Positions 46,926-47,040 of a stretch of 64,000 nucleotides of DNA are shown piece by piece. Under the pieces are notes generated by a model. It worked only from the letters and a program-made list of their open reading frames with translations, made no database searches and had not been told where the DNA came from. This DNA comes from an uncultured Clostridia bacterium (GTDB lineage: Bacteria > Bacillota > Clostridia > TANB77 > CAG-508): contig CALWZW010000002.1 of the NCBI GenBank assembly GCA_944386135.1, positions 31,926 through 95,925 on the forward strand, written 5' to 3'. Both the position numbers and the translations under genes were made by a program. The stretch's first letter is position 1; each line of letters begins with the position of its first letter.

Positions 46926-47040
46926 GATGTGTCAAAGGGGACGTAGAAAAATGACACAAAATTATATAAGTTTTAAATATATCTTATATATCACGTATAT
47001 CACGATTTTGTGTCATTTTTCTACGTCCCCTTTGACACAT
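46926..47040. repeat. REPIN-like inverted doublet / bidirectional terminator (33 bp arms TGTGTCAAAGGGGACGTAGAAAAATGACACAAA, perfect)
   Basis: Perfect inverted repeat between the convergent murC and spoIVB genes. The arm motif recurs at 39400-39430 and, partially, at 2977-2994 and 3177-3195. Confidence 0.8.

Follow-up and report, generated by a model that had tools for sequence, protein, structure and literature searches.

The window analysed here is a stretch of chromosomal DNA of 64,000 nucleotides (29% GC) from a spore-former-like member of Clostridia, and its gene content includes polC, rpsF-ssb-rpsR, nrdDG, murC, spoIVB and a Tad-type pilus cluster. An earlier note on this DNA had described three inverted hairpin doublets, and all three were found where it had located them, with arms of 36 to 44 nt that are 89 to 100% complementary. 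The doublet flagged in the note, e3 (46927-47040), begins 4 nt past the murC stop codon, between convergent neighbours, and consists of two 36-nt arms (46927-46962 and 47005-47040) with 100% complementarity around a 42-nt AT-rich spacer. On one strand, the whole of e3 folds as a single hairpin of -46.2 kcal/mol (z = -16). The second doublet, e2 (45072-45190), overlaps the stop codon of a crp/fnr-type gene, with murC downstream, and its 44-nt arms (45072-45115 and 45147-45190) are 89% complementary and separated by 31 nt. The doublet e1 (34053-34168) has 41-nt arms (34053-34093 and 34128-34168) with 100% complementarity and a 34-nt spacer, and it sits 50 nt upstream of a pilin-like gene of 493 aa, within an island that varies among strains and lies between rpsR and polC (34003-35108). 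Also in this island is a perfect inverted repeat of 25 nt whose arms are separated by 147 nt (34194-34390), and in other strains or species the rpsR-polC interval holds a phage-type integrase gene directly after rpsR (L217 and L218) or a different large gene. Between e2 and murC, upstream of the latter, lies a (GT)13 microsatellite (45295-45320). The spoIVB-type gene for an S55 peptidase (47100-48313, minus strand) is split into three open reading frames in the window and in all contigs of the species and is intact (402 aa) in a sister species (L210); it is either a fixed pseudogene or dependent on frameshifting.

Each arm was seen in the folds as a small hairpin of its own, as the earlier note had described, with stems of 6 to 7 bp (CTGCCA/TGGCAG, CGGTCA/TGACCG and TGTGTCA/TGACACA) and loops of 17 to 18 nt. 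The left unit of e3, TGTGTCA-AAGGGGACGTAGAAAAA-TGACACA (46924-46963, plus strand), folds with a 7-bp stem and a 17-nt loop and is matched by a covariance model at 39.3 bits (E = 2e-8); the right unit is its inverted copy (47004-47043, minus strand; 37.9 bits, E = 5e-8). In e2, the left unit is CGGTCA-ATGGGGACGGTTCTAAA-TGACCG (45076-45115, plus strand; 36.9 bits) and the right unit is CGGTCG-TTTGGGACGGTTCTAAA-TGACCA (45147-45186, minus strand; 31.4 bits). The left unit of e1, CTGCCA-ATAGGGACGCATCTAAAA-TGGCAG (34054-34094, plus strand), for which a fold was also computed, scored 23.2 bits (E = 8e-4) and its partner (34127-34167, minus strand) 22.4 bits. Doublets e1 and e2 are related copies, two compensatory double changes apart. 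As naked DNA, the small hairpins are weak, with -1.9 to -6.5 kcal/mol in four arms of the window and -0.5 to -6.5 kcal/mol across the folds.

The loop had been taken for a fixed GGGGACG-N4-TAAAA, a description that had to be replaced: the loop reads (G)GGGAC-R, then a variable block of 6 to 9 nt, then AAATG. A unit as a whole is a stem of free sequence around a loop with CA-WW-(G)GGGAC-R-N5-8-AAATG. All seven occurrences of GGGACG in the 64 kb fall within GGGAC-N6-8-AAATGRC, against 0.02 expected from shuffles, and a covariance model made from the family recovers the same seven units (E <= 1e-3), the next match, at 16688-16727, being the only other one above noise. Several known kinds of element were weighed and rejected. 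The arm carries a -35-like TTGACA but no -10 at the proper distance, which argues against a promoter, and integron attC sites, Tn3-type ends, type IIS GGGAC restriction sites, CsrA sites and parS- or iteron-like arrays did not fit the anatomy or the distribution.

The window also contains copies in various states of decay, and its content amounts to four clear loci plus one or two degenerate ones per 64 kb. The fourth doublet, e4 (39196-39439), is decayed, with a spacer interrupted by a second, small palindromic element. Its good arm, GTGTGTT-AAAGGGGACGTAGACAAA-TGACACA (39400-39439, minus strand; 32.3 bits), begins 13 nt past the stop codon of a 114-aa gene and is stable across 10 strains, and the decayed partner arm, TTGTGTCCAAAAGGACCCACTGACAAATAACACAAA (39196-39232, plus strand), was recognised by eye from an unscored similarity. 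Thus, what the earlier note had listed as a single copy at 39400-39430 is a real unit, although not a single one. A degenerate doublet containing TTAAAGTGGACGTAGATAAAT (16657-16733), with arms 74% complementary and a 7-nt spacer, lies at the 3' end of the glycyl-tRNA synthetase gene and corresponds to the weak covariance-model match at 16688-16727 (14.6 bits, E = 0.24). Two further sites, which had been described as partial or single copies (2977-2994 and 3177-3195), are indeed remnants, but they are 3' halves without GGGAC: GTAGAAAAATGACACAAAG at 2977-2995 on the plus strand and, inverted, AGAAAAATGACACAAA at 3177-3195 on the minus strand. A third such half, GTAGAAAAATGGCACAA (2803-2820, plus strand), also lacks GGGAC and adjoins an inserted element with 24-nt terminal inverted repeats.

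Other palindromic families share these regions. One has two copies in opposite orientation (2831-2950 and 39272-39391), with perfect 24-nt inverted ends, TTTTGGAGTAATATTT(C/A)TAATTTT, and a GC-rich core of about 70 nt; each copy lies within the spacer of a GGGAC doublet, beside GTAGA(A/C)AAATG(G/A)CACAA, and neither gave an Rfam match. In one strain (L132), a 107-nt deletion was observed at an element of this family. A third inverted-repeat family with a GC-rich core (..CGCGCAGCGA.CAA...GCGAATGG.GCA..) is found at 3015-3163 of the window, at about 11430-11560 of L210 and at about 9800-9950 and 11450-11600 of L214, and its relatives fill the murC-spoIVB gap in sister species without GGGAC doublets.

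To define the extent of the family, one genome per species was scanned with the pattern GGGAC-N6-AAATG...CATTT-N6-GTCCC. At least 117 stretches matched, in Collinsella, AT-rich uncultured Clostridia, Lachnospiraceae and a few others, so the motif is not confined to the three loci from which it was first described; a metagenome scan for the TGTCA subtype gave 11 loci. A unit shared by many Collinsella species reads CTCATTG-GGGAC-AGACTT-AAATGAG, and an example from the AT-rich uncultured Clostridia reads GTTGCCAAAG-GGGAC-GGGTTA-AAATGGCAAC. Outside the letters of the search pattern, and among the matches listed, a purine follows GGGAC in 99 to 100% of the units, a fourth G is usual, and CA stands at -5/-4 in 85 to 96% of units, in AT-rich and in GC-rich genomes. 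Across the family, stems range from 5 to 10 bp and loops from 13 to 18 nt. Viral contigs gave 76 matches to CATTGGGGACN6AAATG, of which only three extend the stem by at least 3 bp; since this number is about our estimate for chance, a viral family was ruled out. The unit sequences, searched literally, did not occur in the papers searched, and BLAST of the doublets against plasmids returned nothing useful beyond one Collinsella record.

The earlier note had also stated that the stems differ while staying complementary and that the loop is conserved, and this was borne out by 54 distinct units from several phyla. Stem positions were paired in 64% of cells, against 32 to 38% when the partner was slid, and the covariation score was 0.315 against about 0.1, a value reached by none of 500 shuffles, with double changes at five pairs. 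About one third of the units are unpaired, namely chimeric units of Collinsella and variants from Lachnospiraceae whose GGGGAC pairs with GTCCCC. In DNA palindromes, covariation can also arise through templated (quasi-palindrome) correction instead of selection.

Next, we considered where the doublets lie. Among 28 doublets from AT-rich and mid-GC loci, 17 occupy gaps between tandem genes, 8 lie between convergent and 3 between divergent genes. They commonly start 10 to 30 nt past a stop codon and often fill the entire intergenic gap. This placement is what would be expected if the doublets acted mainly at the RNA level, in 3' untranslated or intercistronic regions, with a conserved RNA-binding protein reading their GGGGAC loop and mobility having no part; they might, for instance, stabilise mRNAs, be cut by RNase III or serve as unusual terminators in both directions. 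The Lachnospiraceae variants in which a GC-rich hairpin is followed by a T run (L045) and the retention of Collinsella copies at orthologous sites in many species also agree with such a role. Nevertheless, a terminator scan left e1, e3 and e4 unflagged and made only a trivial 5-bp match inside e2, which speaks against an intrinsic terminator with its GC-rich stem, short loop and T run, and the Collinsella cluster sits downstream of a canonical terminator. No Rfam 15 family matched the window, 18 further loci or the Collinsella cluster at gathering score, and below threshold the window and the 18 loci gave only generic long-hairpin (miRNA) noise. Moreover, sister species lack the elements, strains of the species differ in them, and the same motif brackets transposase genes. 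Taken together, a purely RNA-level role appears quite unlikely, while a secondary use of the doublets by the host is possible.

The presence of the doublets was then compared among relatives. In three sister species (MurC 83 to 86% identical), the syntenic DNA, 21 kb from each, contains no units and the e2 site is empty, suggesting that the elements were gained in this lineage. Within the species, e1 is present in the window and in L221 and L222 and absent from L216, L219 and L223; a comparison of filled with empty sites gives no clean boundary, and the junction therefore reads equally as a deletion or as an insertion. The elements also vary internally. Contigs with identical MurC and flanks carry three alleles of e3, in which either arm may have GTAGAAA or TCGCCGATA as its block of 7 to 9 nt after GGGAC and the spacer between the arms is found in both orientations. 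Three strains (L224, L225 and L231) carry e2 with an inverted spacer and fully complementary arms. The block of e1 is GCATCTA or GGTTCT, again on either arm, and GGTTCT is also the block of e2. In another genome, the arms of a doublet (L232) differ in the variable block alone. In strain L001, which has an identical MurC, the start of a different, 616-aa gene replaces the left arm and spacer of e2 (2380-2500 of that contig); the junction falls inside the right unit, between GGGACGGTTCTAAATG and GCAGACAATC, and leaves a chimeric hairpin whose 5' and 3' stems are of different types. Contigs of other strains end at e2. Overall, the family marks hotspots of strain-level variation, with flipped spacers, exchanged blocks, elements present in some contigs and absent from others and one rearrangement junction, and also of breaks in metagenome assemblies.

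Inverted spacers at e2 and e3, blocks swapped between the arms of e1 and a junction inside a unit could indicate that the doublets are sites of a dedicated site-specific recombinase, with the flipping of the spacer as their functional output. However, the spacers are merely 31 to 42 nt long and AT-rich, and e3 lies between two gene 3' ends with no obvious target for a switch. No recombinase gene lies beside e2, e3 or e4, and the phage-type integrase near the e1 island is confined to other strains or species. It is also the stems that vary, and in such a site they would be the arms bound by the protein. In addition, spacer flipping and arm conversion are the expected behaviour of long palindromes, and any long perfect palindrome would show them. 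An inversion switch is thus highly improbable. Flipping and arm conversion do leave unexplained that the variable block is replaced as a whole with only 5 to 10 nt of flanking identity. One way to account for this would be that the hairpin loop is itself an active exchange site, at which a RayT-type enzyme cuts beside GGGAC and swaps the block of 6 to 9 nt and the 3' half between units. We regard this as unlikely, yet if it were true it would account for the replaced blocks, the chimeric units and the rearrangements between strains, and the family might act as an inbuilt source of fast structural change in the genomes of gut Clostridia, or the block might provide programmable specificity like the guide bases of IS200/IS605 elements.

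To look for a transposase partner, relatives were sought with protein sequences from the supplement of Di Nocera et al. 2013, and their flanks were then read. All relatives found carry PF01797, often under the name 'REP element-mobilizing transposase RayT' in their sources, and the candidate partner proteins are about 250 to 285 aa long, with a C-terminal extension that has a weak helix-turn-helix match. PF01797 genes bracketed by inverted GGGAC-R hairpins were found at L250, L248, P0146, P0126 and in Acetoanaerobium. At L250, inverted copies of ATGACAc-GGGGACGTTTCG-TTTGTCAT lie on both sides of the gene, and at L248 the hairpins on both sides carry GGGGACAGGT in the loop. Inverted GGGGACAGG hairpins stand about 60 nt upstream of the genes at P0146 and P0126 and directly after their stop codons, and at L260 a hairpin, AACAATgt-GGGACACATAAGT-ATTGTT, is present upstream only. 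The gene at P0277 has a full doublet upstream, ATGCAATGGGGACGGGGGTTTTTGCAT-taattta-ATGCAAAAACCCCCGTCCCCATTGCAT, with the architecture of the window doublets, and an inverted unit directly after its stop; the core CAATGGGGACGG is identical in this upstream doublet unit and in the left unit of e2. The P0277 protein passes the NCBIfam model NF047646 'REP-associated tyrosine transposase' with 83.2 bits against a cut-off of 80.

The 2.63-Mb chromosome of Acetoanaerobium noterae gave a single tblastn match to the RayT gene, which is flanked by inverted AATCAtta-GGGACGGTTCT-TTTTGATT. BLAST placed this flanking unit at 26 sites, in that genome alone, and its block, GGTTCT, is common with e2; the sites cluster near the gene, and one gene-less doublet retains the gene-proximal flanks. 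Across the comparison, RAYT-like genes bracketed by repeats, with further dimers or clusters, were seen in related genomes (L250, L248, L262/L263 and L275). These flanking units are sister subtypes of the window units, with a T-rich 3' side of the loop in place of AAATG, and they gave no score with the model R1, which was built on window-type units. No Y1/RayT gene is present in the 64-kb window, and tblastn with RAYT, TIRYT and RayT proteins found none beside window-type units at any locus compared. A search for genes between long-range inverted units gave housekeeping genes only (L232, for example), and clustering of the open reading frames around the 117 matches listed revealed orthologous housekeeping genes and no shared transposase. 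We infer that this genome has, or formerly had, a RayT of its own.

Long inverted repeats, a lack of coding capacity and multiple copies are also what would be expected of miniature inverted-repeat elements (MITEs) of a DDE-type insertion sequence, with the arms as its terminal inverted repeats and cut-and-paste movement that duplicates the target site, and the Acetoanaerobium doublet with gene-proximal flanks resembles an internal-deletion derivative. This origin is very unlikely, given that the outermost part of the repeat is locus-specific and the conserved motif internal, that e1, e2 and e3 show no direct target duplication, that the ends of the IS21, IS3 and IS30 copies of Collinsella lack the motif, and that the clustering around the 117 matches listed pointed to no common transposase. 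In addition, the genes bracketed by units are of the Y1/HUH type and not of the DDE type.

We consider it probable that the doublets are non-autonomous REPIN-like elements with units cognate to RAYT-like Y1/HUH transposases from one clade, about 250 to 285 aa long and annotated RayT ('TIRYT'). The most likely reading is that they form part of a family of miniature elements mobilised by a RayT-type (IS200-like) transposase, a known kind of system that is little described in gut Clostridia. The REPIN/RAYT reading, which the earlier note had put forward, is supported by features observed directly: the anatomy and covariation of the doublets, their behaviour in populations, with lineage-specific and strain-polymorphic presence, and the related units beside RayT-type Y1 genes in other, independent Firmicutes loci. 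A doublet comprises two inverted REP-like hairpin units, each with a stem of 5 to 10 bp whose sequence is free provided that pairing holds and a loop of 13 to 18 nt that opens with (G)GGGAC-R, preceded by CA-WW, and the hosts of the family are gut Clostridia, Lachnospiraceae, Collinsella and others. In the mechanism that we propose, the enzyme would bind the small hairpin on single-stranded DNA through the loop motif and the shape of the stem. Cutting and rejoining of single strands would then copy or move units and doublets to sites outside genes, mostly just past stop codons. Inserted copies would persist and, since they are long palindromes, their spacers would flip, their arms interconvert and the elements serve as breakpoints of rearrangements. 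The binding, cleavage site and copying mode assumed here are modelled on known RAYT and IS200/IS605 enzymes.

As in REPIN/RAYT systems, small hairpins are paired in inverted orientation into a long hairpin, stand outside genes and mostly after them, and form lineage-specific populations, and a Y1/HUH gene in single copy lies between repeats of its own, here sister subtypes in other genomes. Differences are also apparent. The 5' GTAG tag is not conserved, and GTAG appears only where the variable block of e3 or e4 begins; in classical REPs the stem and tag are constant and the loop is variable, whereas in the window family the loop is constant and the stems vary. The hosts are Firmicutes and Actinobacteria instead of Pseudomonas and Enterobacteria, and the partners, with their C-terminal extension, exceed the RAYT of E. 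coli (about 165 aa). To our knowledge, REPIN-RAYT systems have been studied almost solely in Proteobacteria, as long-lived, vertically inherited sequence populations, and the present family would carry this principle over to Lachnospiraceae, Collinsella and uncultured Clostridia of the gut. With a conserved loop and free stems, it would offer a direct handle on the recognition by the enzyme, and it would explain thousands of 'RayT' annotations in Firmicutes that have no described cognate repeat.

A closer precedent exists. Some RAYT-like Y1 genes ('TIRYT') are flanked by long inverted repeats and not by GTAG REPs (Di Nocera, De Gregorio & Rocco 2013, BMC Genomics 14:522, PMC3733652). The repeats of these TIRtrons share GGGGWSAS, some are self-complementary, and elsewhere they occur as dimers or clusters; the text names neither Firmicutes nor Actinobacteria, and the supplementary alignment includes 'dau 2153' (PMC3733652). 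Placement of the motif in a hairpin loop, covariation of stems and strain-level dynamics are not part of that paper (PMC3733652). In Collinsella, L248, P0146 and P0126, the sequence GGGGACAG fits GGGGWSAS exactly, whereas the window units read GGGGACGG or GGGGACGT, with G for A at position 7, and e1 has only GGGACG; the units of AT-rich Clostridia, GGGGACG(G/T), are one position off the TIRtron consensus. The label 'dau 2153' presumably denotes Desulforudis audaxviator, a member of Clostridia. What is known, then, is REPIN-RAYT and specifically its TIRtron variant with a GGGGWSAS-type motif; what is new is the gut family of Firmicutes and Actinobacteria, and its own traits are the conserved loop, the covarying free stems, the hypervariable block in the loop and the visible strain-level dynamics.

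Two other groups of repeats resemble the doublets in part. The CGTC-tagged REPs (dRS3 of Neisseria and RPE of Rickettsia) carry the complement of GACG, are mostly head-to-head dimers and stand outside genes. Their tag lies outside a stem of 8 to 9 bp with a 4- to 5-nt loop and a CCA tail, and they have no known transposase, whereas here GACG lies inside a loop of 13 to 18 nt, there is no CCA tail and Collinsella mostly has GACA. The IS200/IS605 elements and their PATE derivatives belong to the same superfamily (Y1 HUH, PF01797), for which recognition of subterminal single-strand hairpins would be expected. Their end hairpins have the same orientation on one strand, whereas the units that flank RayT genes here are inverted, as in REPtrons.

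The family is sparse in Collinsella, where one cluster of units was found in 250 kb. The Collinsella RayT-like gene (L261, 2486-3298) has HVR for HUH, with loss of the second histidine, and no canonical units lie within 400 nt of it, so the gene is possibly inactive or domesticated; given the few units, the HVR motif and the lack of canonical units near the gene, the system may no longer be active in Collinsella. The hairpins that flank the Collinsella IS200 tnpA are unrelated and contain no GGGGAC units. Over the 250 kb of Collinsella DNA (L243 and L244-L247), GGGGAC/GTCCCC occurs 6 to 24 times per 50 kb, compared with about 48 predicted by base composition, which may be a codon or dinucleotide effect. 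Two PLSDB records used here are filed as plasmids. NZ_OY725717.1 (Collinsella aerofaciens 'plasmid 6', 0.9 Mb; L243-L247 and L261) contains ribosomal-protein operons, recA and ftsK and is therefore chromosomal DNA, and NZ_CP154629.1 (Acetoanaerobium noterae 'pTPELB2', 2.63 Mb; L262-L266), for which PLSDB gives almost no genes, was judged to be chromosomal by its length alone. In the Collinsella record, the spc ribosomal operon appears to be broken after rplX, exactly at the unit cluster.
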